Made by a program: the position numbers and the translations under genes. 39,381 nucleotides of DNA from Shigella phage ESh6. The stretch lies in the sequence record ON528719; one strand, given 5' to 3'. Every line of letters begins with the position of its first letter. Positions within the stretch are counted from its first letter, which is position 1. Below, in pieces: positions 1,643 through 39,381 of this stretch. The notes beneath the pieces were generated by a model. It was not told where the DNA came from, ran no database searches, and was given only the letters and a program-made list of their open reading frames with translations.

Positions 1643-1846
1643 ATGCTGTCTTTAGATTTTAACAACGAGGTAGTGAAGGCTGCTCCGATTGTAGGGACTG
1701 GTGTAGCAGATGGTGCTGCCAGACTCTTTTGGGGACTCTCATTAAACGAGTGGTTCTATATTGCTGCTATCGCCTACACAGTGGTTCAGATTGGTGCCAA
1801 GGTAGTCGATAAGATGATTGACTGGAAGAAAGCTAATAAGGAGTGA
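1643..1846 (+). CDS. 17.5: Holin (T7 gp17.5 homolog)
   Basis: 67-aa ORF with GGAGG RBS; near-identical to T7 gp17.5 from memory (MLSLDFNNE...KVVDKMIDWKKANKE); hydrophobic core. Confidence 0.88.
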   Translation: MLSLDFNNEVVKAAPIVGTGVADGAARLFWGLSLNEWFYIAAIAYTVVQIGAKVVDKMIDWKKANKE

Positions 1847-1849
1847 CGT

Positions 1850-2119
1850 ATGGAAAAAGATAAGAGCCTTATCACGTTCTTAGAGATGTTGGACACTGCG
1901 ATGGCCCAGCGTATGCTTGCTGATTTAGCAAACGACGAGCGTCGGACCCCGCAACTCTACAACGCCATCAACAAACTGTTAGACCGCCACAAGTTCCAGA
2001 TTGGCAAGTTGCAGCCGGATGTTCACATCTTGGGTGGCCTTGCTGGTGCTCTCGAAGAGTACAAAGAGAAAGTAGGTGATAACGGTCTTACGGATGACGA
2101 TATTTACACTTTACAGTGA
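1850..2119 (+). CDS. 18: DNA maturation/packaging protein A, small terminase (gp18)
   Basis: 89-aa ORF, same length and position as T7 gp18, directly after the holin gene. Confidence 0.85.
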   Translation: MEKDKSLITFLEMLDTAMAQRMLADLANDERRTPQLYNAINKLLDRHKFQIGKLQPDVHILGGLAGALEEYKEKVGDNGLTDDDIYTLQ

Positions 2120-2120
2120 T

Positions 2121-2150
2121 ATACTCAAGGTCTCCTACGGGTGGCCTTTA
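2121..2150 (+). other. RNase III processing hairpin (R18.5-like)
   Basis: 'actcaaggtctcctacgggtggccttta' shares the 'aaggtc...gtggcctt' imperfect hairpin motif seen at other intergenic sites in this window. Confidence 0.5.
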
Positions 2151-2211
2151 TGGATGTCATTGTCTATACGAGATGCTCCTATGTGAAATCTGAAAATTAA
2201 CGGGAGGCATT

Positions 2212-2655
2212 ATGCTTGAATTTTTACGTAAGCTAGTCCCTTGGGTTCTCGCTGGGATGCTATTCGGATGGGGATGGCAACTTGGGGAAGACTCCATGGA
2301 CGCTAAGTGGAAGCAGGAGGTACAGAATGAGTACGTCAAGAGAGTTGAGGCTACGGCAAGCACTCAAAGAGCAATCAATGAAATATCGGCTAAGTATCAA
2401 GAAGACCTTGCCGCGCTGGAAGGGAGCACTGATAGGATTATTTCTGATTTGCGTAGCGACAATAAGCGGCTGCGTGTCAGAGTCAAAACTACCGGAACCT
2501 CCGATGGTCAGTGTGGATTCGAGCCTGATGGTCGAGCCGAACTTGACGACCGAGATGCTAAGCGTATTATCGCAGTGACCCAGAAGGGTGACGCATGGAT
2601 TCGTGCGTTACAGGATACTATTCGTGAACTGCAACGCAAGCAGGAAATCAAGTAA
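2212..2655 (+). CDS. 18.5: Rz-like i-spanin (gp18.5)
   Basis: 147-aa ORF with GGGAGG RBS; N-terminal hydrophobic segment then charged coiled-coil-like region; position matches T7 18.5. Confidence 0.8.
   Translation: MLEFLRKLVPWVLAGMLFGWGWQLGEDSMDAKWKQEVQNEYVKRVEATASTQRAINEISAKYQEDLAALEGSTDRIISDLRSDNKRLRVRVKTTGTSDGQCGFEPDGRAELDDRDAKRIIAVTQKGDAWIRALQDTIRELQRKQEIK
2327..2578 (+). CDS. 18.7: Rz1-like o-spanin lipoprotein (gp18.7), embedded in 18.5 in the +1 frame
   Basis: ATG at 2327 preceded by 'gcaggagg'; 83 aa with lipobox-like LICVATISGC and Pro-rich tail. The ORF track's TTG start at 2282 is the same frame. Confidence 0.7.
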   Translation: MSTSRELRLRQALKEQSMKYRLSIKKTLPRWKGALIGLFLICVATISGCVSESKLPEPPMVSVDSSLMVEPNLTTEMLSVLSQ

Positions 2656-2664
2656 GGAGGCAAC

Positions 2665-4425
2665 GTGTCTACTCAATCCAATCGTAATGCGCTCGTTGTG
2701 GCGCAACTGAAAGGTGACTTCGTGGCGTTCCTGTTCGTCTTATGGAAGGCGTTAAACCTTCCTGTACCTACTAAGTGCCAGATAGATATGGCTAAGGTAC
2801 TGGCGAACGGGGACAACAAGAAGTTCATCCTACAGGCTTTCCGTGGTATCGGTAAGTCGTTCATCACTTGTGCGTTCGTTGTGTGGTCCTTATGGCGGGA
2901 CCCTCAGTTGAAGATACTTATCGTATCAGCTTCTAAAGAACGTGCAGACGCTAACTCCATATTCATCAAGAACATCATTGACCTGCTACCGTTTCTCAGT
3001 GAGTTGAAGCCGAGACCCGGACAGCGTGACTCTGTGATTAGCTTTGATGTTGGTCCTGCTAGTCCTGACCACTCTCCTAGTGTGAAATCAGTAGGTATCA
3101 CTGGTCAGTTAACTGGTAGTCGTGCTGATATTATCATCGCGGATGACGTTGAGATTCCGTCTAACAGTGCGACTATGGGTGCCCGTGAGAAACTATGGAC
3201 TCTAGTTCAGGAGTTCGCTGCGCTTCTTAAACCTCTGCCTACATCTCGTGTTATCTACCTTGGTACTCCTCAGACTGAGATGACTCTGTATAAGGAGCTT
3301 GAGGATAACCGTGGGTATACGACTATTATCTGGCCTGCTCTGTACCCAAGGACTCGTGAGGAGAACCTCTACTACTCTCAACGTCTGGCACCAATGCTCC
3401 GTGCGGAGTACGAGGAGAATCCTGAGGCACTGGCTGGGACTCCTACAGACCCTGTTCGATTCGACCGAGACGACCTACGTGAGCGTGAGTTGGAATACGG
3501 TAAGGCTGGCTTTACGTTACAGTTCATGCTTAACCCGAACCTGAGTGATGCCGAGAAGTACCCTCTGAGGCTCCGTGACGCTATCATAGCGGCCTTAGAC
3601 TTAGAGAAGGCACCAATGCATTACCAATGGCTTCCGAACCGTCAGAACATCATTGAGGACCTTCCTAACGTTGGCCTTAAGGGTGATGACCTGTATACAT
3701 ACCACGACTGCTCCAACAACTCTGGTCAGTACCAACAGAAGATTCTGGTCATTGACCCTAGTGGTCGCGGTAAGGATGAAACAGGTTACGCTGTACTGTA
3801 CACCCTCAACGGTTACATCTACCTAATGGAAGCTGGAGGTTTCCGTGATGGTTACTCCGATAAGACCCTTGAGCTACTCGCTAAGAAGGCCAAGCAATGG
3901 GGAGTCCAGACGGTTGTCTACGAGAGTAACTTCGGTGACGGTATGTTTGGTAAGGTGTTCAGTCCTATCCTTCTTAAACACCACAACTGCGCTATGGAAG
4001 AGATTCGTGCTCGTGGTATGAAGGAGATGCGTATTTGTGATACCCTTGAGCCAGTCATGCAGACTCACCGCCTTGTCATTCGAGATGAGGTCATTCGGGC
4101 AGACTACCAGTCCGCTCGTGACGTAGACGGTAAGCATGACGTTAAGTACTCACTGTTCTACCAGATGACCCGTATCACCCGTGAGAAAGGTGCTCTGGCT
4201 CATGATGACCGATTGGATGCTCTTGCGCTAGGCGTTGAGTATCTCCGTGAGTCCATGAAATTGGATTCCGTTAAGGTAGAGGGTGAGGTACTTTCAGACT
4301 TCCTTGAGGAACACATGATGCGACCTACAGTGTCTGCTGCCCACATCATTGAGATGTCTGTAGGAGGAGTTGATGTGTACTCTGAGGACGATGAGGGATA
4401 CGGTACGTCTTTCATTGAGTGGTGA
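2665..4425 (+). CDS. 19: Terminase large subunit / DNA maturation protein B (gp19)
   Basis: 586-aa ORF, same length as T7 gp19 and near-identical from memory; GTG start at 2665 after 'aaggagg'; Walker A-like GIGKS. Confidence 0.95.
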
Positions 4426-4462
4426 TTTATGAGGCCAAGGAAGGCCACTTTAAGGAGGTAAT

Positions 4463-4906
4463 ATGATAAACAAGAAGAAGTATGTTGTTGATAAGGAGAC
4501 TGGTTGCTGGAACTTTAAGGGATGCAAGACGAAGACTGGCTATGGTCGCATTCGTGTAAATGGAGTCCATTGGATGGCCCACAGGTATTCCCTGAGTTGT
4601 CATCTAGGCAGACCGATAGCTGACGGAATGGTTGTGATGCACCTGTGTGATAACCCTTCATGTGTTAACCCTGAGCACCTTAAGGAAGGGACTCAGAAGG
4701 AAAACATAGAGGACTGCATCTCAAAAGGTCGCGCAACTAAGGCCACAGGTAAACGTGATGCGTCTAAGAGAGACCCTAGCGAGGAACGTAAGGCTATAGT
4801 GATTCGTAGATACCATAAAGGCTGGACCGCAACGTCCATAGCGAGATACCATAAGCTCTCTGTGGCTTGGGTCAAGAGGACCATTGAGGAGTACCTAAGT
4901 GATTGA
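4463..4906 (+). CDS. HNH homing endonuclease (free-standing), inserted relative to T7
   Basis: 147-aa ORF with 'aaggagg' RBS. Cys/His-rich N-terminus and HNH core MHLCDNPSCVNPEHL; paralogous to the gene 7.7 ORF at 23823..24224. Confidence 0.8.
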   Translation: MINKKKYVVDKETGCWNFKGCKTKTGYGRIRVNGVHWMAHRYSLSCHLGRPIADGMVVMHLCDNPSCVNPEHLKEGTQKENIEDCISKGRATKATGKRDASKRDPSEERKAIVIRRYHKGWTATSIARYHKLSVAWVKRTIEEYLSD

Positions 4907-4957
4907 TATTTGAAATTAGTGATACAGGTCTAAGTATATGATTACAGACCATTATTC

Positions 4958-4980
4958 TAATTCGACTCACTATAGGGAGA
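4958..4980 (+). promoter_or_regulatory. T7 RNAP promoter phiOR (right-origin promoter)
   Basis: 'taattcgactcactatagggaga' matches the 23-bp T7 consensus except T at -13; lies between gene 19 and 19.5. Confidence 0.8.
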
Positions 4981-5066
4981 AGCCTACCTAAAGATTACTA
5001 TAAGACTTAAAGTGGCTATAAGGTAGGTTGTTATTATTAATACAACCAACATAAAGGAGGAGACTC

Positions 5067-5216
5067 ATGTTCCGCTTATTGTTGAACCTACTGCGGCATA
5101 GAGTCACCTATCGCTTTCTTGTGGTACTTTGTGCTGCCCTTGGGTACGCATCGCTTAGTGGAGACCTCGGTTCACTGGAGTCTACCGTTTGCTCTTTACT
5201 CACTTGTAGTGATTAA
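5067..5216 (+). CDS. 19.5: gp19.5 homolog (small hydrophobic protein)
   Basis: 49-codon ORF (below the ORF-track cutoff) after 'aaggagg'; MFRLLLNLLRHRVTYRFLVVLCAALGYASLSGDLGSLESTVCSLLTCSD matches T7 gp19.5 from memory. Confidence 0.7.
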   Translation: MFRLLLNLLRHRVTYRFLVVLCAALGYASLSGDLGSLESTVCSLLTCSD

Positions 5217-8418: not shown

Positions 8419-8455
8419 TCTTATCTTACAGGTCATCTGCGGGTGGCCTGAATAG
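8419..8455 (+). other. RNase III site R1-like hairpin
   Basis: 'ttatcttacaggtcatctgcgggtggcctgaata' between 0.7 and gene 1, matching the T7 R1 region (recalled). Confidence 0.5.
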
Positions 8456-11788: not shown

Positions 11789-12811
11789 ATGATGAACATT
11801 AAGACCAACCCATTTAAAGCAGTGTCTTTCGTAGAGTCTGCCATTAAGAAAGCTCTGGACAACGCTGGGTATCTTATCGCTGACATTAAATACGATGGTG
11901 TACGTGGTAACATCTGCGTAGACAATACTGCTAACAGTTGCTGGCTCTCTCGTGTATCTAAAACGATTCCGGCACTGGAGCACCTAAACGGATTCGATGC
12001 ACGCTGGAAGCGCCTTCTGAATGATGACCGTTGCTTCTACAAAGATGGCTTTATGCTCGATGGAGAACTCATGGTCAAGGGAGTAGACTTCAACACTGGG
12101 TCTGGCCTACTGCGCACCAAATGGACAGACACTAAGAACCAAGAGTTCCACGAAGAGTTATTCGTTGAGCCAGTCCGTAAGAAAGACAAGGTTCCCTTTA
12201 AGTTACACACTGGGCATCTGTGCATCAAACTGTATGCTATCCTCCCGCTTCACGTTGTAGAGTCTGGAGAAGACTGCGACATAATGACGCTGCTTATGCA
12301 GGAACACGTTAAGAACATGCTGCCTCTGCTACAGGAATACTTCCCTGAAATCGAATGGCAAGCGGCTGAATCTTACGAGGTCTACGACATGGTAGAACTA
12401 CAGCAACTGTATGAGAAGAAGCGTGAAGAAGGTCATGAGGGTCTCATTGTAAAAGACCCCATGGGAATCTACAAGAGAGGCAAGAAGTCCGGCTGGTTCA
12501 AAATGAAGCCAGAGAACGAGGCTGACGGCATTATCCAAGGTCTGGTATGGGGTACAGAGGGTCTGGCTAACGAAGGCAAAGTGATTGGCTTTGAGGTGCT
12601 TCTTGAGAGTGGTCGTGTAGTAAACGCCACAAACATCTCTCGCGCCTTAATGGACGAGTTCACCAATACCGTAAACATTGAAGGCCGTGACTTCTACAAT
12701 GGACACGCTTGCCAGATTAGCTACATGGAGGAAACACCTGACGGCTCCCTGCGTCACCCATCATTCGTAATGTTCCGTGGCACCGAGGACAACCCTCAAG
12801 AGAAAATGTAA
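11789..12811 (+). CDS. 1.3: ATP-dependent DNA ligase (gp1.3)
   Basis: 340-aa ORF; N-terminus MMNIKTNPFKAVSFVESAIKKALDNAGYLIADIKYDGVRGN contains adenylation motif I (K-Y-DG-R); near-identical to T7 ligase except a shorter segment near residue ~300. Confidence 0.92.
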   Translation: MMNIKTNPFKAVSFVESAIKKALDNAGYLIADIKYDGVRGNICVDNTANSCWLSRVSKTIPALEHLNGFDARWKRLLNDDRCFYKDGFMLDGELMVKGVDFNTGSGLLRTKWTDTKNQEFHEELFVEPVRKKDKVPFKLHTGHLCIKLYAILPLHVVESGEDCDIMTLLMQEHVKNMLPLLQEYFPEIEWQAAESYEVYDMVELQQLYEKKREEGHEGLIVKDPMGIYKRGKKSGWFKMKPENEADGIIQGLVWGTEGLANEGKVIGFEVLLESGRVVNATNISRALMDEFTNTVNIEGRDFYNGHACQISYMEETPDGSLRHPSFVMFRGTEDNPQEKM

Positions 12812-12818
12812 CCACACT

Positions 12819-12849
12819 GGCTCACCGAAAGGTGGGCCTTTCTGCGTTT
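12819..12849 (+). terminator. Early rho-independent terminator TE (host RNAP)
   Basis: Hairpin 'ggctcacc gaaa ggtgggcc' followed by 'tttctgcgttt' just after the ligase gene, as in T7. Confidence 0.7.
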
Positions 12850-12871
12850 AATACGACTCACTATAGGAGAT
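12849..12871 (+). promoter_or_regulatory. T7 RNAP promoter phi1.5
   Basis: 'taatacgactcactataggagat': consensus -17 to +2. Confidence 0.85.
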
Positions 12872-12878
12872 ACACCTT

Positions 12879-12971
12879 ATGATGTATTTAATGCCATTAC
12901 TCATTATTATCATTGGATGTCTTGCGCTTCATTTTAAGGATGACGACGACATGCCAGATGGTCACGCTTAA
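12879..12971 (+). CDS. 1.5: gp1.5 homolog (small hydrophobic/acidic peptide)
   Basis: 30-codon [33 protein letters not shown], similar to T7 gp1.5 from memory; sits between phi1.5 and phi1.6. Confidence 0.6.
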
Positions 12972-12996: not shown

Positions 12997-13257
12997 ATGT
13001 TCCGACTTCATTTCAACAAAAGCATTAAGAATTTCACAGTTCGCCGTGCTGACCGTTCAATCGTATGTGCGAGCGAACGCCGAGCTAAGTTACCTCTTAT
13101 TGGTAATACAGTTCCTCTGGCACCGAGCGTCCACATCATTATCACTCGTGGTGACTTCGAGAAAGCAATAGACAAGAAACGTCCGGTTCTTAGCGTGGCA
13201 GTGACCCGCTTCCCGTTCGTCCGTCTGTTACTCAAACGAATCAAGGAGGTGTTCTGA
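12997..13257 (+). CDS. 1.6: gp1.6 homolog
   Basis: 86 aa from ATG 12997 (ORF track 12913..13257 starts upstream of the promoter); length and position match T7 gp1.6. Confidence 0.75.
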
Positions 13258-13467
13258 TGAGCAAAGACATGGTAAACCAACCTGCGCATTATACTTCTGG
13301 CGGTATTGAATGCCTTGACGCTATCAGGGCTTCGATGACAGAGGAGGCATTTAAAGGATTCCTTAAAGGTAATGTACTTAAATACATGTGGCGTTACGAG
13401 AAGAAGTTTAACCCTACTGAGGACTTGAAGAAGGCTCAGTGGTACTTGAGTAGATTGGAGGAAGCTA

Positions 13468-13493
<26 letters not shown>
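13257..13493 (+). CDS. 1.7: gp1.7-related protein, short form (C-terminal region only of the T7 nucleotide kinase)
   Basis: 78-aa ORF; ...QPAHYTSGGIECLDAIRASMTEEAFKGFLKGNVLKYMWRYEKK resembles only the C-terminal part of 196-aa T7 gp1.7 (recalled). Confidence 0.65.
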
Positions 13494-13857: not shown

Positions 13858-14556
13858 ATGGCTAAGAAGATTTTCACCTCTGCGCTTGGTACTGCTGAAC
13901 CTTACGCTTACATCTCAAAGCCTGACTACGGTAACGAAGAGCGTGGCTTTGGGAACCCTCGTGGTATCTTTAAAGTTGACCTGACAATTCCCAACAAAGA
14001 CCCGCGTTGTCAACGTATGGTCGATGAAATCGTGAAGTGTCACGAAGAGGCTTATGCTGCTGCCGTTGAGGAATATGAGGCTAACCCGCCATCCGTAGCT
14101 CGTGGTAAGAAACCGCTGAAACCGTATGAAGGTGATATGCCGTTCTTCGATAATGGAGACGGTACGACTACCTTTAAGTTCAAATGCTACGCGTCCTTCC
14201 AAGACAAGAAGACCAAAGAGACCAAGCACATCAATCTGGTTGTGGTTGACTCCAAAGGTAAGAAGATGGAAGACGTTCCGATTATCGGCGGTGGCTCTAA
14301 GCTGAAAGTCAAGTATTCTCTTGTTCCGTACAAGTGGAACACTGCTGTAGGTGCGAGCGTTAAGCTGCAACTGGAATCCGTTATGTTGGTCGAACTGGCT
14401 ACCTTTGGTGGCGGTGAAGACGATTGGGCTGACGAAGTTGAAGAGAATGGCTATGTTGCCTCTGGTTCTGCCAAAGCGAGCAAACCACGCGACGAAGAAA
14501 GCTGGGACGAAGACGACGAAGGCTCTTACGAAGAAGACTCAGATGGAGACTTCTAA
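13858..14556 (+). CDS. 2.5: Single-stranded DNA-binding protein (gp2.5)
   Basis: 232-aa ORF, same length as T7 gp2.5; acidic C-terminal tail ending ...EEDSDGDF. Confidence 0.95.
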   Translation: MAKKIFTSALGTAEPYAYISKPDYGNEERGFGNPRGIFKVDLTIPNKDPRCQRMVDEIVKCHEEAYAAAVEEYEANPPSVARGKKPLKPYEGDMPFFDNGDGTTTFKFKCYASFQDKKTKETKHINLVVVDSKGKKMEDVPIIGGGSKLKVKYSLVPYKWNTAVGASVKLQLESVMLVELATFGGGEDDWADEVEENGYVASGSAKASKPRDEESWDEDDEGSYEEDSDGDF

Positions 14557-15012
14557 GTGGCTGGCGCATACGCTGCGCGTGGTATCAGAAAGGTCGGGAC
14601 ATTCCGTTCCGGCCTAGAAGATAAGGTCTCTAAGCAGCTAGAGGGTAAGGGCATTAAGTTCGACTATGAACTGTGGAAAATCCCTTACGTTGTCCCTGCG
14701 AGTAACCATGTCTACACTCCAGACTTCCTGCTGCCTAACGGAATCTTTATTGAAACCAAAGGTTTATGGGAGAGTGACGACCGAAAGAAACACTTACTGA
14801 TTCGCGAACAGTTTCCAGAACTGGACATCCGTCTGGTATTTTCTAGCTCACGTACCAAGCTGTATAAAGGGTCTCCGACCAGTTACGGCGAATGGTGTGA
14901 GAAGCACGGTATTCTGTTTGCTGACAAATTAGTTCCTATAGAATGGCTCAAAGAACCTAAAAAGGAGGTGCCATTTGACAAGCTGAAACAATCGAAGGGA
15001 GGAAAGAAATAA
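14557..15012 (+). CDS. 3: Endonuclease I, Holliday-junction resolvase (gp3)
   Basis: 151-aa ORF with GTG start; ...GIRKVG.FRSGLEDKVSKQLE.KGIKF...PDFLLPNGIF.ETKGLWESDDRKKHLLIREQ matches T7 gp3. Confidence 0.9.
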   Translation: MAGAYAARGIRKVGTFRSGLEDKVSKQLEGKGIKFDYELWKIPYVVPASNHVYTPDFLLPNGIFIETKGLWESDDRKKHLLIREQFPELDIRLVFSSSRTKLYKGSPTSYGEWCEKHGILFADKLVPIEWLKEPKKEVPFDKLKQSKGGKK

Positions 15013-15467
15013 TGGCTCGTGTACAGTTTAAACAACGTGAATCTACTGACGCAATCTTTGTTCACTGCTCGGCTACCAAGCCAAGTCAGAATGTGGGTGT
15101 CCGTGAGATTCGCCAGTGGCATAAAGAGCAAGGTTGGCTTGATGTGGGGTATCACTTTATCATCAAGCGTGATGGTACTGTAGAGGAAGGCCGAGATGAG
15201 ATGGCTGTAGGTTCTCACGCTAAGGGCCACAACCACAACTCTATTGGTGTCTGCCTTGTTGGTGGAATTGACGATAAAGGTAAGTTCGACGCTAACTTTA
15301 CGCCAGCCCAAATGCAATCCCTTCGCTCACTGCTTGTCACACTGCTGGCTAAGTATGAAGGCGCTGTACTTCGCGCGCATCATGAGGTCGCGCCGAAGGC
15401 ATGTCCTAGTTTCAACCTGAAACGCTGGTGGGAGGAGAATGAACTGGTTACGTCTGACCATGAGTAA
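15012..15467 (+). CDS. 3.5: Lysozyme, N-acetylmuramoyl-L-alanine amidase; also RNAP inhibitor (gp3.5)
   Basis: 151-aa ORF near-identical to T7 lysozyme (MARVQFKQRESTDAIFVHCSATKPSQNVGVREIRQWH...). Confidence 0.95.
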   Translation: MARVQFKQRESTDAIFVHCSATKPSQNVGVREIRQWHKEQGWLDVGYHFIIKRDGTVEEGRDEMAVGSHAKGHNHNSIGVCLVGGIDDKGKFDANFTPAQMQSLRSLLVTLLAKYEGAVLRAHHEVAPKACPSFNLKRWWEENELVTSDHE

Positions 15468-15873
15468 TTTACGCATAGACCCGTCAAGTCCTTCCGGTAT
15501 CTCCAAAGGTGATAAACCTATTGGGTGGATTCACAAAGGAAGATATTGGAGGATGCGGATAAACGGTAAAGCAGTGATGTGCCATGTGGTGATAATGGAA
15601 CTAAAAACAGGAGAACCGATTCCAGAAGGACTGGAAGTTGACCACATAAACAGGAACGGGTTGGACAATTCAATTGGGAACCTTCGCCTAGTTGACCGCC
15701 AAACCAATGTCTGTAATACCGGATGTCGTAAGGACTCAAAGACAGGGGTTAAGGGTGTTAGCTATCGAGAAGGTAGACTCAAGCCTTATTCCGCACACAA
15801 ACAGCGTAATGGTATTCGAAAGTGTAAATCTTTCGAGACTATTGAGGAAGCTGTAAAGTGGCTCGATAATTAA
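15460..15873 (+). CDS. 3.8: HNH endonuclease with AP2-like DNA-binding domain, at the gene 3.8 position
   Basis: ORF track 15439..15873; likely start ATG 15460. HNH motif EVDHINRNGLDNSIGNLRLVDRQTN and AP2-like GVKGVSYREGRLKPYSAHKQRNG. Not orthologous to recalled T7 gp3.8. Confidence 0.72.
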   Translation: MSNLRIDPSSPSGISKGDKPIGWIHKGRYWRMRINGKAVMCHVVIMELKTGEPIPEGLEVDHINRNGLDNSIGNLRLVDRQTNVCNTGCRKDSKTGVKGVSYREGRLKPYSAHKQRNGIRKCKSFETIEEAVKWLDN

Positions 15874-15893
15874 TTGAACTCACTATAGGGAGA
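15871..15893 (+). promoter_or_regulatory. T7 RNAP promoter phi3.8 (divergent upstream half)
   Basis: 'taattgaactcactatagggaga'; same upstream deviations as T7 phi3.8. Followed by hairpin 'gggagaccataacggtttccc'. Confidence 0.75.
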
Positions 15894-15925
15894 CCATAAC
15901 GGTTTCCCTTTGTTCGCATCATTGA

Positions 15926-17681
<1,756 letters not shown>

Positions 17682-18687: not shown

Positions 18688-20802
18688 ATGATCGTTTCTG
18701 ACATCGAAGCTAACGCCCTCTTAGAGAGCGTCACTAAGTTCCACTGCGGGGTTATCTACGACTACTCCACCGCTGAGTACGTAAGCTACCGTCCGAGTGA
18801 CTTCGGTGCGTATCTGGATGCGCTGGAAGCCGAGGTTGCACGAGGCGGTCTTATTGTGTTCCACAACGGTCACAAGTATGACGTTCCCGCATTGACCAAA
18901 CTGGCAAAGCTACAATTGAACCGAGAGTTCCACCTTCCCCGTGAGAACTGTATCGACACCCTTGTGCTGTCACGCTTGATTCACTCTAACCTAAAGGACA
19001 CCGATATGGGTCTTCTGCGTTCCGGTAAACTGCCGGGGAAACGCTTTGGGTCTCACGCTTTGGAGGCGTGGGGTTATCGCTTAGGCGAGATGAAGGGTGA
19101 ATACAAGGATGACTTTAAGCATATGCTTGAAGAGCAAGGTGAAGAATACGTTGACGGAATGGAGTGGTGGAACTTCAACGAAGAGATGATGGCCTATAAC
19201 GTTCAGGACGTTGTGGTCACTAAGGCTCTCCTTGAGAAGCTACTCTCTGACAAACATTACTTCCCTCCTGAGATTGACTTTACGGACGTAGGCTACACTA
19301 CGTTCTGGTCAGAATCCCTTGAGGCCGTTGATGTTGAACATCGCGCTGCATGGCTACTCGCTAAGCAGGAACGAAATGGGTTCCCATTTGACACCAAGGC
19401 AATCGAAGAGTTGTACGTAGAGTTAGCTGCTCGTCGCTCAGAGTTGCTGCGTAAGCTGACCGAAACGTTCGGCTCGTGGTATCAGCCTAAAGGTGGAACA
19501 GAAATGTTCTGCCATCCACGAACAGGTAAGCCGCTGCCTAAATACCCTCGCATTAAGATACCTAAAGTTGGTGGCATCTTTAAGAAGCCTAAGAACAAGG
19601 CACAGCGAGAAGGTCGTGAGCCTTGCGAACTGGATACCCGCGAGTACGTTGCTGGCGCTCCTTACACCCCAGTTGAGCACGTAGTGTTTAACCCATCGTC
19701 TCGTGACCACATCCAGAAGAAACTCCAAGAGGCTGGATGGGTCCCAACCAAGTACACCGATAAGGGTGCTCCTGTGGTGGACGATGAGGTACTCGAAGGA
19801 GTACGCGTAGATGACCCTGAGAAGCAAGCTGCAATCGACCTCATTAAAGAGTACCTGATGATTCAGAAGAGAATCGGACAGTCTGCTGAGGGAGACAAGG
19901 CATGGCTCCGATACGTGGCTGAGGATGGTAAGATTCACGGTTCTGTAAACCCTAACGGGGCAGTTACTGGTCGCGCCACTCACGCTTTCCCTAACCTCGC
20001 ACAGATACCAGGTGTCCGTTCTCCTTATGGTGATAAGTGCCGCGCTGCTTTTGGCGCTGAACATCACCTAGATGGTGTTACTGGTAAGCCTTGGGTTCAG
20101 GCAGGTATCGACGCATCCGGCCTTGAGTTGCGCTGTTTGGCCCACTTCATGGCTCGCTTTGACAACGGTGAGTATGCTCACGAGATTCTCAATGGCGACA
20201 TCCACACTAAGAACCAGATTGCTGCTGAGTTGCCTACCCGTGATAACGCTAAGACGTTTATCTATGGGTTCCTCTACGGTGCTGGTGATGAGAAGATTGG
20301 ACAGATTGTTGGTGCTGGTAAAGAGCGCGGCAAGGAACTCAAGAAGAAATTCCTTGAGAACACCCCAGCGATTGCAGCACTCCGTGAGTCTATCCAACAG
20401 ACACTTGTTGAGTCCTCGCAGTGGGTAGCTGGCGAACAGCGAGTCAAGTGGAAACGCCGCTGGATTAAAGGTCTGGATGGTCGTAAGGTACACGTTCGTA
20501 GTCCTCACGCTGCATTGAATACCCTTCTGCAATCTGCTGGTGCTCTCATCTGCAAACTGTGGATTATCAAGACAGAAGAGATGCTAGTAGAGAAAGGCTT
20601 GAAGCATGGCTGGGATGGAGACTTTGCGTACATGGCGTGGGTACATGATGAAATCCAAGTAGGTTGCCGTACCGAAGAGATTGCTCAGGTGGTCATTGAG
20701 ACCGCACAAGAAGCAATGCGCTGGGTTGGAGACCACTGGAACTTCCGGTGTCTTCTGGATACCGAAGGTAAGATGGGTCCTAACTGGGCCGTATGTCACT
20801 GA
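18688..20802 (+). CDS. 5: DNA polymerase (family A) with 3'-5' exonuclease (gp5)
   Basis: 704-aa ORF, same length as T7 gp5; exo motif [11 protein letters not shown] and polymerase motifs present. Confidence 0.97.
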
Positions 20803-20821
20803 TTCTATAGGAGAAATTATT

Positions 20822-21121
20822 ATGGCTATGACCAAGAAATTTAAAGTGTCCTTCGACGTTACCGCTAAGATGACATCTGACGTTCAGGCAATCTTAGAGA
20901 AAGACATGCTGCACCTGTGTAAGCAGGTTGGCTCTGGTGCTATTGTTCCTAACGGTAAACAGAAGGAAATGATTGTCCAGTTCCTGACGCATGGTATGGA
21001 AGGGTTGATGACGTTCATTGTGCGAACGTCTTTCCGTGAGGCTATCAAAGAGATGCACGAAGAGTATTCCGATAAGGACTCCTTCAAACTATCTCCTGCA
21101 ACTGTACGGGAGGTGTTCTGA
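20822..21121 (+). CDS. 5.5: gp5.5 homolog (H-NS-binding protein in T7)
   Basis: 99 aa from ATG 20822 after 'taggag' (ORF track 20681..21121 overlaps the gene 5 end); length matches T7 gp5.5. Confidence 0.8.
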   Translation: MAMTKKFKVSFDVTAKMTSDVQAILEKDMLHLCKQVGSGAIVPNGKQKEMIVQFLTHGMEGLMTFIVRTSFREAIKEMHEEYSDKDSFKLSPATVREVF

Positions 21122-23505: not shown

Positions 23506-23826
23506 ATGGGTAAGAAAGTCAAGAAGGTAGTTAAGAAAGTCACTAAGCCCGTTGAGAAAGCCGTAAAGAAAGTTACCAAGGAAGTGGCTCGTCCTATTAA
23601 ACAGGTTGCTGGTGCGTTGGCAGGTGGCGCTGGTGAAACACAGGTAGTTGAAGTTCCACAACCAACAGCCGCTGCAACTCCTGCTGCACAGATTGTTGAC
23701 GTACCTGAGAAAGAGGTTTCCACTGAGGACGAAGCACAGACCGAAAGCGGACGCAAGAAAGCTCGTTCTGGTGGTAAGAAGTCCTTGAGTGTAGCCCGTA
23801 GCTCCGGTGGGGGTATAAATATATGA
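23506..23826 (+). CDS. 7.3: gp7.3 homolog (tail/adsorption protein)
   Basis: 106-aa Lys/Ala-rich ORF with RBS 'aaggagg'; position matches T7 gp7.3. Confidence 0.8.
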   Translation: MGKKVKKVVKKVTKPVEKAVKKVTKEVARPIKQVAGALAGGAGETQVVEVPQPTAAATPAAQIVDVPEKEVSTEDEAQTESGRKKARSGGKKSLSVARSSGGGINI

Positions 23827-24224
23827 CAGATTGTATCCTTCATACTGGTTGCACGACTAAAGGAGGGTACGGTCTCGTTGGTTATAAAGGTAAGACACAG
23901 CTGGCTCACAGGGTATCATACATCAAATCAAAGGGTGAGATACCGACTGGTATGGTTATAATGCATACCTGTGACAACCCTCTATGCATCAACCCTGAAC
24001 ATCTTGTAGCTGGTACTCAGCGTGATAACCGTATGGACTGTGTAACTAAAGGTAGAGATAACGCATCCAGAGGTGAAGAGCATTACGGTGCCAAGCTCAC
24101 TGAGGCCATTGTACGTGAGATTCGTGCATCAAATTTAACAAACACTGAGTTGTCAGAAATGTATGGCATCCATAGGAGAACCATTAGTGACGCTCGATGT
24201 GGTAAGACATGGAGGCATATTTAA
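23823..24224 (+). CDS. 7.7: HNH homing endonuclease (gp7.7 homolog)
   Basis: 133-aa ORF; HNH core MHTCDNPLCINPEHL and MTDCILHTGCTTKGGYG N-terminus; resembles T7 gp7.7 from memory. Confidence 0.82.
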   Translation: MTDCILHTGCTTKGGYGLVGYKGKTQLAHRVSYIKSKGEIPTGMVIMHTCDNPLCINPEHLVAGTQRDNRMDCVTKGRDNASRGEEHYGAKLTEAIVREIRASNLTNTELSEMYGIHRRTISDARCGKTWRHI

Positions 24225-37500: not shown

Positions 37501-38533
37501 CACACAGGAACTGGCTGCTCGCTCTCCATGGACTAAGATGCTGAACGGGACAACTAACTACCTTCTGGATGCTGCGCGTCAAGGGATGCTTGGAGATGTT
37601 ATTAGTGCCACCCTAACAGGTAAGACTACCCGCTGGGAGAAAGAAGGATTCCTTCGTGGTGCCTCAGTAACTCCTGAGCAGATGGCTGGCATCAAGTCTC
37701 TCATCAAGGAACATATGGTACGTGGTGAGGACGGGAAGTTTACCGTCAAGGACAAGCAAGCGTTCTCTATGGACCCTCGCGCTATGGACTTATGGCGACT
37801 TGCTGACAAGGTAGCTGATGAGGCAATGTTGCGTCCGCATAAGGTGTCCTTACAGGATTCCCATGCGTTCGGAGCATTGGGTAAGATGGTTATGCAGTTT
37901 AAGTCTTTCACTATCAAGTCCCTTAACTCTAAGTTCGTTAGAACCTTCTACGATGGTTATAAGAACAACCGAGCGATTGACGCTGCGCTGAGCATCATCA
38001 CCTCTATGGGTCTCGCTGGTGGTTTCTACGCTATGTCTGTACACGTCAAAGCGTATGGGATGCCTAAGGAGAAACGTAAGGAGTACTTGGAGCGCGCACT
38101 GGACCCAACCATGATTGCCCACGCTGCGTTATCTCGTAGTTCTCACTTGGGTGCTCCTTTTGCTATTGCTGACCTAGTTGGCGGTGTTTTAGGGTTCGAG
38201 TCCTCCAAGATGGTTCGCTCCACGATTCTACCTAAGGACACAGTGAAGGAGCGCGACCCTAATAAGCCTTATACCTCGTGGGAGGTAATGGGTAATATGG
38301 GTTCCAACATTCTTGAACAGATGCCATCGGCTGGATTTGTGGCTAACGTTGGGGCTTCCCTGCTTAATACTGCTGGCGTTGTGAATGCTCCAAACAAAGC
38401 TACTGAGCAGGACTTCATGACTGGTCTCATGAACTCCACAAAAGAGTTAGTACCGAACGATCCATTGACGCAACAGCTTGTGTTGAAGATTTATGAGGCG
38501 AATGGTGTTAACTTGAGGGAGCGTCGGAAATAA
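34577..38533 (+). CDS. 16: Internal virion (core) protein D with N-terminal lytic transglycosylase domain, gp16
   Basis: 1318-aa ORF, same length as T7 gp16; N-terminal SLT-like motif ...VAWTESRFVPTAKSKTGPLGVMQFTKATAKALG.... Confidence 0.95.
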   Translation: MDKYDKNVPSDYDGLFQKAADANGVSYDLLRKVAWTESRFVPTAKSKTGPLGVMQFTKATAKALGLRVTDGPDDDRLNPELAINAAAKHLAELVSKFDGDELKAALAYNQGEGRLGNPQLEAYSKGDFASISEEGRNYLRNLLDVAKSPMAGQLETFGGITPKGKGIPAEVGLAGIGHSQKVTQELPESTSFDVKGIEQEAPAKPFAKDFWETHGETLDEYNSRSTFFGFKNAAEAELSNSVAGMAFRAGRLDNGFDVFKDTITPTRWNSHIWTPEELEKIRTDVKNPAYINVVTGGSPENLDDLIKLANENFENDSLAAEAGLGAKLSAGIIGAGVDPLSYAPMVGVTGKGFKLINKALVVGAESAALNVASEGLRTSVAGGDSDYAGAALGGFVFGAGMSAISDAIAAGLKRSKPEAEFDNEFIGPMMRMEARETARNANSTDLSRMNTENMKFAGEHNGVPYEDLPTEKGAVVLHDGSVLSASNPINPKTLKEFSEVDPEKAARGIKLAGFTEIGLKTLGSDDADIRRVAIDLVRSPTGMQSGASGKFGATASDIHERLHGTDQRTYNDLYKAMSDAMKDPEFSTGGAKMSREETRYTIYRRAVLAIERPELQKVLTPSERIVMDIIKRHFDTKRELMENPAIFGNTKAVSIFPESRHKGTYVPHVYDRHAKALMIQRYGAEGLQEGIARSWMNSYVSRPEVKARVDDMLKEVHGVKEVTPEMVEKYAMDKAYGISHSDQFTNSSIIEENIEGLVGIENNSFLEARNLFDSDLSITMPDGQQFSVNDLRDFDMFRIMPAYDRRINGDIAIMGSTGKTTKELKDEILALKAKAEGDGKKTGEVHALMDTVKILTGRARRNNDTVWETSMRAINDLGFFAKNAYMGAQNITEIAGMFATGNVRALGHGIPILRDTLYKSKPVSAKELKELHASLFGKEVDQLIRPKRADIVQRLREATDTGPAVANIVGTLKYSTQELAARSPWTKMLNGTTNYLLDAARQGMLGDVISATLTGKTTRWEKEGFLRGASVTPEQMAGIKSLIKEHMVRGEDGKFTVKDKQAFSMDPRAMDLWRLADKVADEAMLRPHKVSLQDSHAFGALGKMVMQFKSFTIKSLNSKFVRTFYDGYKNNRAIDAALSIITSMGLAGGFYAMSVHVKAYGMPKEKRKEYLERALDPTMIAHAALSRSSHLGAPFAIADLVGGVLGFESSKMVRSTILPKDTVKERDPNKPYTSWEVMGNMGSNILEQMPSAGFVANVGASLLNTAGVVNAPNKATEQDFMTGLMNSTKELVPNDPLTQQLVLKIYEANGVNLRERRK

Positions 38534-38604: not shown

Positions 38605-39381
38605 ATGGCTAACGTAATTAAAACCGTTTTGACTTACCAGTTAGATGGCTCCAATCGTGATTTTAATATCCCGTTTGAGTATCTAGCCCGTAAGTTCGTA
38701 GTGGTAACTCTTATTGGGGTAGACCGTAAGGTCCTTACTATCAATACAGACTACCGTTTTGCTACGCGTACTACCATCTCACTGACTAAGGCTTGGGGTC
38801 CGGCAGATGGCTACACTACCATCGAGTTACGTCGAGTAACCTCCACGACAGACCGATTGGTTGACTTTACGGACGGCTCAATCCTCCGTGCGCATGACCT
38901 TAACGTTGCTCAGATTCAAACGATGCACGTAGCGGAAGAGGCCCGTGACCTAACTGCCGATACTATCGGTGTTAATAACGATGGTCATTTGGATGCTCGT
39001 GGTCGTAAGATTGTTAACTTGGCGTATGCCACAAGTGACTATGATGCCGTTCCTTTAAAGCAGGTTAAAGAGCGTGAATACTCTGCATGGAATGCTGTAA
39101 CAAAATCTAACGAACACGCTGACAGGTCCAATAATGAAGCAAACCGTTCTCGTGATGAGGCCAACCGTGCTCAACGTGAAGCTGACCGTTCGACCCAACA
39201 GGCAGGTGTCTCTACGGCACAGGCAGTTGAGTCCAAAACGCAAGCTGACCGTTCCAACTCTGAGGCCAACCGTGCTAAAGGTTATGCTGATAGTATGACC
39301 ACAAGTGTCGCTGAGGCCAAGAAGCAAGCTGACCGTTCCAACTCTGAGGCAAATCGTTCCCGTGATGAGGCCAACCGTGCT
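38605..39381 (+). CDS. 17: Tail fibre protein gp17, 5' portion (continues past the window end into 1..1047)
   Basis: ATG 38605 after 'aaggagg'; MANVIKTVLTYQLDGSNRDFNIPFEYLARKFVVVTLIGVDRKVLTIN... near-identical to the T7 gp17 N-terminal domain, then heptad-rich repeats. No stop before the window end. Confidence 0.92.
   Translation, partial: MANVIKTVLTYQLDGSNRDFNIPFEYLARKFVVVTLIGVDRKVLTINTDYRFATRTTISLTKAWGPADGYTTIELRRVTSTTDRLVDFTDGSILRAHDLNVAQIQTMHVAEEARDLTADTIGVNNDGHLDARGRKIVNLAYATSDYDAVPLKQVKEREYSAWNAVTKSNEHADRSNNEANRSRDEANRAQREADRSTQQAGVSTAQAVESKTQADRSNSEANRAKGYADSMTTSVAEAKKQADRSNSEANRSRDEANRA

Follow-up and report, generated by a model that had tools for sequence, protein, structure and literature searches.

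We identified, in the genome of Shigella phage ESh6, a 144-aa open reading frame (ORF 15439-15873, hereafter the HNH gene; the inserted DNA is referred to as the cassette) that is probably a free-standing, I-HmuI-like HNH_3 homing endonuclease gene with a C-terminal module of the AP2 type, from a lineage that resides where gene 3.5 ends in T7-group phages (Studiervirinae). The gene is present or absent at a fixed site in genomes that are otherwise collinear, it belongs to a lineage that appears to be bound to this site, and the adjoining end of gene 3.5 is mosaic. The support for mobility of the cassette is wholly comparative.

The window, that is, the whole stretch of DNA that was analysed (sequence record ON528719; 39,381 nt), is a Teseptimavirus genome, apparently complete and circularly permuted. 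The nearest records are Teseptimavirus phages with ~92-95% identity, none of them identical (megablast), and a tblastn search with all 56 annotated T7 proteins recovered nearly all T7 genes, in the T7 order, with backbone proteins 82-100% identical to those of T7. In the permuted order, genes 17.5 to 19.5 occupy 1643-5213, the left end and the early genes follow from ~6464, gene 16 ends at 38530, and gene 17 is divided, within its repetitive coiled-coil part, between both window ends (38605-39381 and 1-1047). A terminal overlap between the window ends, sought as proof of circular permutation, was not found. Because the window ends inside gene 17, no other locus is missing; the window thus represents an essentially complete T7-group genome in which gene absence can be tested genome-wide. 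The features discussed here are compiled in Table 1.

Table 1. Features of the ESh6 window (coordinates are positions in the window)
Feature	Coordinates	Strand	Basis
HNH_3 + HTH_23 gene downstream of gene 19 (large terminase)	4463..4906	+	Pfam; corresponds to 13a gp19.4
Ligase-to-1.5 interval: TE hairpin, then phi1.5-type promoter; 1.4 absent	12812..12878	+	alignment
Gene 2.5 stop TAA directly followed by gene 3 GTG; 2.8 absent	14554..14559	+	alignment
Last 76 nt of gene 3.5 (amidase/lysozyme), mosaic tract associated with the HNH gene	15392..15467	+	identity drop, informative sites
Free-standing, predicted HNH_3 + AP2-like endonuclease gene, 144 aa	15439..15873	+	
402-bp block missing in IME390, vB_SmaP-UFV01 and vB_YpYeO9	15463..15864	+	alignments
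phi3.8-type T7-RNA-polymerase promoter TAATTGAACTCACTATAGGGAGA	15871..15893	+	perfect core; aligns with T7 phi3.8
Gene 4 (primase-helicase), downstream neighbour	15941..17674	+	
19-bp gap between genes 5 and 5.5; 5.3 absent	20803..20821	+	alignment
HNH_3 + HTH gene at the 7.7 locus	23823..24224	+	47% identity to T7 gp7.7, 44% to 13a gp7.7

The product is a predicted HNH_3 nuclease with an AP2-type end

The HNH gene product matches the Pfam family HNH_3 (PF13392) over residues 47-90 with an E-value of 1.2e-14 and a score of 54.1 bits, against a family cut-off of 24.8 bits, and PHROG 99 (phrog_99, ‘HNH endonuclease’) over residues 17-143 with an E-value of 6e-40. Residues D68, H69, N77, N81 and N90 are invariant when the protein is aligned with 28 homologues from the databases (29 sequences in total), such that the catalytic and metal-binding D-H...N...N signature is intact, and the predicted fold resembles that of a solved HNH_3/I-HmuI-like member. 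By profile, catalytic residues and modelled fold alike, the product is a predicted nuclease of the I-HmuI type within HNH_3. I-HmuI itself (PDB 1U3E; Bacillus phage SPO1; His-Me finger ‘Group 2’, HNH_3/zf-His_Me_endon), an HNH homing endonuclease of the same class, is intron-encoded and consists of 174 aa with a helical and HTH end, whereas the ESh6 gene is free-standing and its 144-aa product has an AP2-like end.

A search with the whole protein yielded no Pfam match to AP2 (PF00847), and the C-terminus alone scored 15.6 bits (E 0.02), below the cut-off of 33.3, so that the AP2 assignment rests on the homologues and the predicted structure. In the corresponding C-terminal region, 15 of the 29 aligned homologues match AP2 at E ≤ 0.01, and the AlphaFold model of the ESh6 protein (pLDDT 89.8) contains three strands and a helix at residues 107-143. 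Homology through these intermediates, together with a three-stranded sheet packed on one helix that is shorter than in typical AP2 domains, points to a small AP2-type C-terminal module. An HNH plus AP2 architecture is described for homing endonucleases (PMC5714182 and PMC10448857, citing Magnani et al. 2004); these enzymes have an N-terminal HNH and a C-terminal AP2 domain, as in the ESh6 protein, and homologues of the latter carry PF00847 as they do. Given this precedent and the AP2 matches of the homologues, the sequence-only reading, which had described an HNH core plus an AP2-like domain at the 3.8 locus, was right as to the domains; the T7 3.8 position did not hold, the gene being located upstream of the promoter. 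For comparison, Teseptimavirus Ebrios gp18, a protein of the 3.8 locus, exceeds the Pfam thresholds for both HNH_3 (37.9 bits) and AP2 (36.2 bits), whereas the module of the ESh6 protein is truncated after a short helix and stays below that for AP2. The Ebrios gene occupies the 3.5-to-4 interval and, like T7 3.8, overlaps the beginning of gene 4.

The cassette interrupts the junction between gene 3.5 and the promoter

The gene order in the window is 3.5, HNH, promoter, 4, in contrast to 3.5, promoter phi3.8, 3.8, 4A in T7 and 13a. The HNH gene shares its first 29 nt with the end of gene 3.5, relative to which it is read in the +1 frame. Its TAA stop codon coincides with the initial 3 nt of the 23-nt phage promoter downstream. 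This promoter is among the 12 sites with perfect promoter cores that were found in the window, compared to 0.06 expected by chance, and drives gene 4 with no intervening 3.8 gene; gene 4 begins with the ‘no 3.8’ allele (MELEQDS...), as it does in the relatives with an empty site. A scan for sigma-70 promoters and intrinsic terminators around the HNH gene gave nothing above chance. As it precedes the phi3.8-type promoter, the HNH gene must depend on read-through transcription, together with genes 2.5 to 3.5.

In IME390, vB_SmaP-UFV01 and vB_YpYeO9, which lack the 402-bp block, the site is bare, with the gene 3.5 stop followed by the promoter and then gene 4, and the flanks are intact. The block is flanked by the two copies of an imperfect 7-nt repeat (left, AGTAATT; right, GATAATT), so that its borders can slide by up to 7 nt. 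Within the phage collection, the uninterrupted 3.5/promoter junction was found in 229 records and the promoter leading straight into gene 4 in 42; the cassette itself was matched by a single record in the megablast search, that of Yersinia phage vB_Yep_9 (95.4%), where the gene is labelled ‘hypothetical protein’. The vB_Yep_9 copy differs by the loss, at ~10807 of that genome, of 32 bp just after the HNH gene (corresponding to 15879-15910 of the window) that hold the promoter core; as recorded, vB_Yep_9 would have no phage promoter before gene 4.

The HNH gene is a distant paralogue of T7 gene 3.8

The HNH gene product had been said not to resemble T7 gp3.8, and strong pairwise identity to that protein would have spoken against this. 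When compared, the two proteins are 37% identical over 70 of the 144 residues, in the HNH core only, so identity is indeed low, yet the similarity (E ~1e-11 to 1e-12) is clear and a total lack of likeness was an overstatement. T7 gp3.8 lacks the N-terminal 35 residues, and 13a gp3.8 is somewhat closer, with 35% identity over the full length; the isolated C-termini of both gave no Pfam match to AP2. The T7 and 13a genes belong to the same family and occupy the same interval; however, they are located downstream of phi3.8, with T7 3.8 beginning 45 nt past the phi3.8 transcription start, and overlap the start of gene 4A, whereas the HNH gene is upstream and overlaps the end of gene 3.5. The HNH gene product and T7 gp3.8 are distant paralogues of one family.

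That the HNH gene is the orthologue of T7 gene 3.8, diverged in place, would account for the shared 3.5-to-4 interval, the shared HNH_3 family and the similarity at E ~1e-12, but is very improbable, given the position on the opposite side of phi3.8, an insertion point that precedes the one of T7 3.8 by ~45 nt, the restriction of the 37% identity to 70 residues with the N-terminal 35 residues wanting in T7 gp3.8, and the ‘no 3.8’ allele that follows the promoter here as in 42 records. We rejected orthology on the side of the promoter and on the core identity of 37%, where ~90% or more would be expected of the backbone, and T7 gene numbering should not be carried over to the HNH gene. In T3, a small ORF, gp3.7, occupies the same spot; it was considered as a remnant of the HNH gene and rejected, no similarity being found. 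At least three distinct HNH genes are thus found in the 3.5-to-4 interval, inserted at either of two points ~45 nt apart.

A lineage bound to the 3′ end of gene 3.5

The closest relative of the HNH gene product, encoded by vB_Yep_9 (XUE03827), shows 94% aa identity, and its gene occupies the same site and overlaps the end of gene 3.5. The Kayfunavirus phages MirsaeidiM_Esher2, pO2 and PH1061 carry copies with 63-65% aa identity, each of which overlaps the end of the lysozyme gene (tblastn) and is followed by a 3.7-like ORF, and homologues with 66% and 96% identity were found in six metagenome contigs with the order Amidase_2, HNH, primase-helicase. Homologues at 57-66% identity are all at the same site, overlapping the Amidase_2 gene. 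Altogether, the lineage is located at the end of gene 3.5 in 11 of 11 contexts (the window, vB_Yep_9, the three Kayfunavirus genomes and the six contigs), spanning at least two genera, whereas distant paralogues (36-41%) occupy other junctions, beside the ligase gene or after gene 19.

The same junctions in the independent isolate vB_Yep_9 and in four metagenome contigs, at 96% protein identity, also bear on the provenance of the sequence: an assembly chimera of two co-occurring phages might be suspected from the permuted-looking assembly, which ends in the repetitive gene 17, and from a homopolymer frameshift in gene 4, but such an origin of the arrangement can hardly be credited in view of this recurrence.

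Across both short and long divergences, dN/dS of the HNH gene is 0.14-0.17, well below 1, which indicates purifying selection as estimated from these sequence comparisons. Homing endonuclease genes commonly degenerate after fixation, and the HNH gene might accordingly be suspected to be a decaying relic with a nuclease that is no longer active. The PH1061 copy has a 29-residue internal deletion, so that some copies are decaying, and the AP2 module of the ESh6 protein is short and below threshold; nevertheless, with an intact frame, invariant catalytic residues, a confident model and the low dN/dS, we consider a relic in ESh6 quite unlikely.

Purifying selection is also what would be expected if the gene were kept for a benefit other than homing, such as blunting a break-sensing defence or excluding competing phages, and were effectively domesticated. 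In this regard, a recent preprint (10.1101/2025.09.07.674715) reports an anti-defence effect of T7 gp3.8, with the catalytically dead mutant T7_3.8 H34A hindering GAPS4-mediated protection, and a competitive advantage conferred by homing endonucleases. By analogy, a second, anti-defence role of the HNH gene is possible. The protein tested, however, was T7 gp3.8, which is 37% identical in the core, and so rare a cassette (one record, compared to 229 in which the junction is uninterrupted) looks more like a selfish element than like a gene of broad use. Retention for such a benefit is an unlikely account of the gene, although it and homing are compatible and need not exclude each other.

The end of gene 3.5 is mosaic in carriers

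The last 76 nt of gene 3.5 depart from the remainder of the gene in every carrier lineage compared. Between the window and its own-genus relatives with an empty site, identity is 93% in the rest of gene 3.5 and 75% in this tract, and between HNH-bearing and HNH-less Kayfunavirus (the latter represented by one genome) the corresponding values are 83% and 66%. The comparison of the window with the Kayfunavirus carriers shows the opposite trend, with 66% in the rest of the gene and 75% in the tract. The window has the state of the HNH-bearing Kayfunavirus phages at 8 of the 17 informative sites in the tract as opposed to 2 of 79 elsewhere in gene 3.5 (Fisher p 7e-6), although within 15439-15467 the likeness could partly reflect constraint from the overlapping HNH frame rather than co-conversion. 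One of the changes in the tract creates the ATG at 15439, and the C-terminus of the lysozyme is altered from RG to HE.

Synonymous divergence between the window and vB_Yep_9 amounts to 0.139 in the cassette, a value that reflects as few as 12 synonymous differences, versus 0.387 in gene 3.5 and 0.283 in gene 4; the lower dS fits a cassette younger than the split of the backbones. The mosaic flank and the lower dS of the cassette fit co-conversion, with the provisos that the sample is small and the tract partly frame-constrained. Co-conversion of flanking markers by homing endonucleases has been described (PMC10448857).

Under the homing reading, the enzyme would, during mixed infection, nick or cut the empty allele near the 3.5/promoter junction, and repair from the HNH-bearing genome would copy in the cassette along with a short stretch of flanking DNA. 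The altered flank might then shield the carrier from self-cleavage. We put forward tentatively, as something short of probable, the more specific proposition that the gene represents an undescribed HNH-AP2 lineage, specific for the 3′ end of gene 3.5, that crosses genera of the T7 group (Teseptimavirus, Kayfunavirus and others) with ~76 nt of recoded gene 3.5 that would provide both a start codon and self-immunity, and that perhaps helps against break-sensing host defences like T7 gp3.8.

Loci of this kind are familiar from the free-standing Seg and Mob homing endonucleases of T-even phages, which co-convert flanking markers as they spread and the genes of which are likewise intergenic, near essential genes, variably present and accompanied by a mosaic flank. 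Seg proteins are GIY-YIG enzymes, and for Seg and Mob both activity and marker exclusion were shown experimentally, whereas the ESh6 gene is known from sequence comparison. That nuclease genes are found at recombination boundaries is a described theme (PMC10448857), and T7-like phages are regularly reported to differ in their homing endonuclease content (PMC4925675). The cassette adds to the cases in which nuclease genes mark the borders of exchange between phages; as a difference within the group it is ordinary and well known, and it does not change the understanding of T7-like phages. The finding chiefly aids annotation, in that the ‘hypothetical protein’ of vB_Yep_9 can be named as a putative HNH-AP2 homing endonuclease. 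In addition, the 3.5-to-4 interval is a hotspot that has received HNH genes independently at least three times, at two points, and could serve as a convenient natural system for homing tests.

Genes 1.4, 2.8 and 5.3 are absent, as is usual outside T7

The three gene absences noted in the sequence-only reading were reproduced by alignment, down to the 19-bp gap left without 5.3. The ligase gene stop codon is at 12809-12811 and gene 1.5 starts at 12879, the interval between them consisting of the TE hairpin and the phi1.5-type promoter, between which T7 has gene 1.4. The gene 2.5 stop codon (14554-14556) directly precedes the GTG of gene 3 at 14557, where T7 holds the 420-bp gene 2.8, and gene 5 ends at 20802, with gene 5.5 starting at 20822 and 5.3 located between the two in T7. 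The reading could still have failed if these genes were present elsewhere in the complete genome. However, tblastn searches of the whole window found no match to gp1.4 or gp5.3, and the cross-matches of gp2.8 were confined to a pair of paralogous HNH ORFs (39% and 38% identity).

In the TE hairpin (12819-12838), the stem is kept and the loop is GAAA (12827-12830) in place of TTCG in T7, one stable tetraloop for another.

In phage 13a, the annotation of which follows T7 gene naming, the TE/phi1.5, 2.5/3 and 5/5.5 regions are arranged as in the window (gene 2.5 of 13a ends at 8441 and gene 3 starts at 8442), and T3 also lacks 1.4 and 2.8 and shares the TE/phi1.5 layout. By megablast, T7 gene 2.8 was found in 114 records and gene 5.3 in 59, all of T7 or its derivatives, and gene 1.4 in 46 records, those of T7 and three Shigella phages; one Serratia phage also annotates gp1.4. 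These layouts and the T7-restricted records mark T7 as the outlier; members of the genus other than T7 usually do without 1.4, 2.8 and 5.3, and ESh6 is not special in this respect. Furthermore, T7 gp5.3 belongs to PD-(D/E)XK_5 by Pfam and is not an HNH protein, whereas the T3 ‘gp5.3’ is an HNH protein unrelated to it, and gene 1.4 is not a nuclease gene, its product appearing, from reading the gene, to be small and hydrophobic. Thus, the homing endonuclease repertoire does differ from that of T7, as had been claimed, but its framing as a departure from T7, with 1.4 and 5.3 counted in, has to be revised.

Other HNH genes and further observations

Two further HNH genes were found in the window. 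The one at the 7.7 locus is divergent from its T7 counterpart, in contrast to its neighbours, genes 7 and 8, which share 97-98% identity with those of T7; this suggests allele replacement here too. The other, downstream of gene 19, is 70% identical to 13a gp19.4 and 99% to a vB_Yep_9 ORF, and T7 has no counterpart. The vB_Yep_9 genome contains an extra HNH gene between genes 1.2 and 1.3 and a T3-type 5.3, with no annotated 7.7, a repertoire that differs again and fits the proposed turnover. The suggestion that selfish nuclease genes and small ORFs are gained and lost on a conserved backbone is borne out by four clean presence/absence loci, the flanks of which are intact, the site-bound lineage and the mosaic flank.

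Several other differences from T7 were observed in the window. The gene 17 fibre is only ~60% identical to T7 gp17 and is the most divergent large structural gene. The DNA ligase gene (11789-12811) encodes 340 aa compared to 359 in T7, owing to an internal deletion relative to T7, and has the same length in 13a. Gene 1.7, encoding a nucleotide kinase of 196 aa in T7, has shrunk to a 78-aa ORF (13257-13493) in which the DUF3310 part alone is kept, and the interval from gene 1.6 to gene 2 measures ~340 bp as opposed to ~730 bp in T7. Finally, a G-run in gene 4 (17585-17587) consists of three G residues, compared to four in T7, vB_Yep_9 and IME390. The shorter run could be a true variant or an error in sequencing the homopolymer. 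With the frame shifted, the primase-helicase loses its acidic C-terminal tail, the contact with T7 DNA polymerase, to a different sequence, and the ORF lengthens to 577 aa; a T7-like tail (gp4A residues 550-566) can still be read at 17587-17637, in a different frame.
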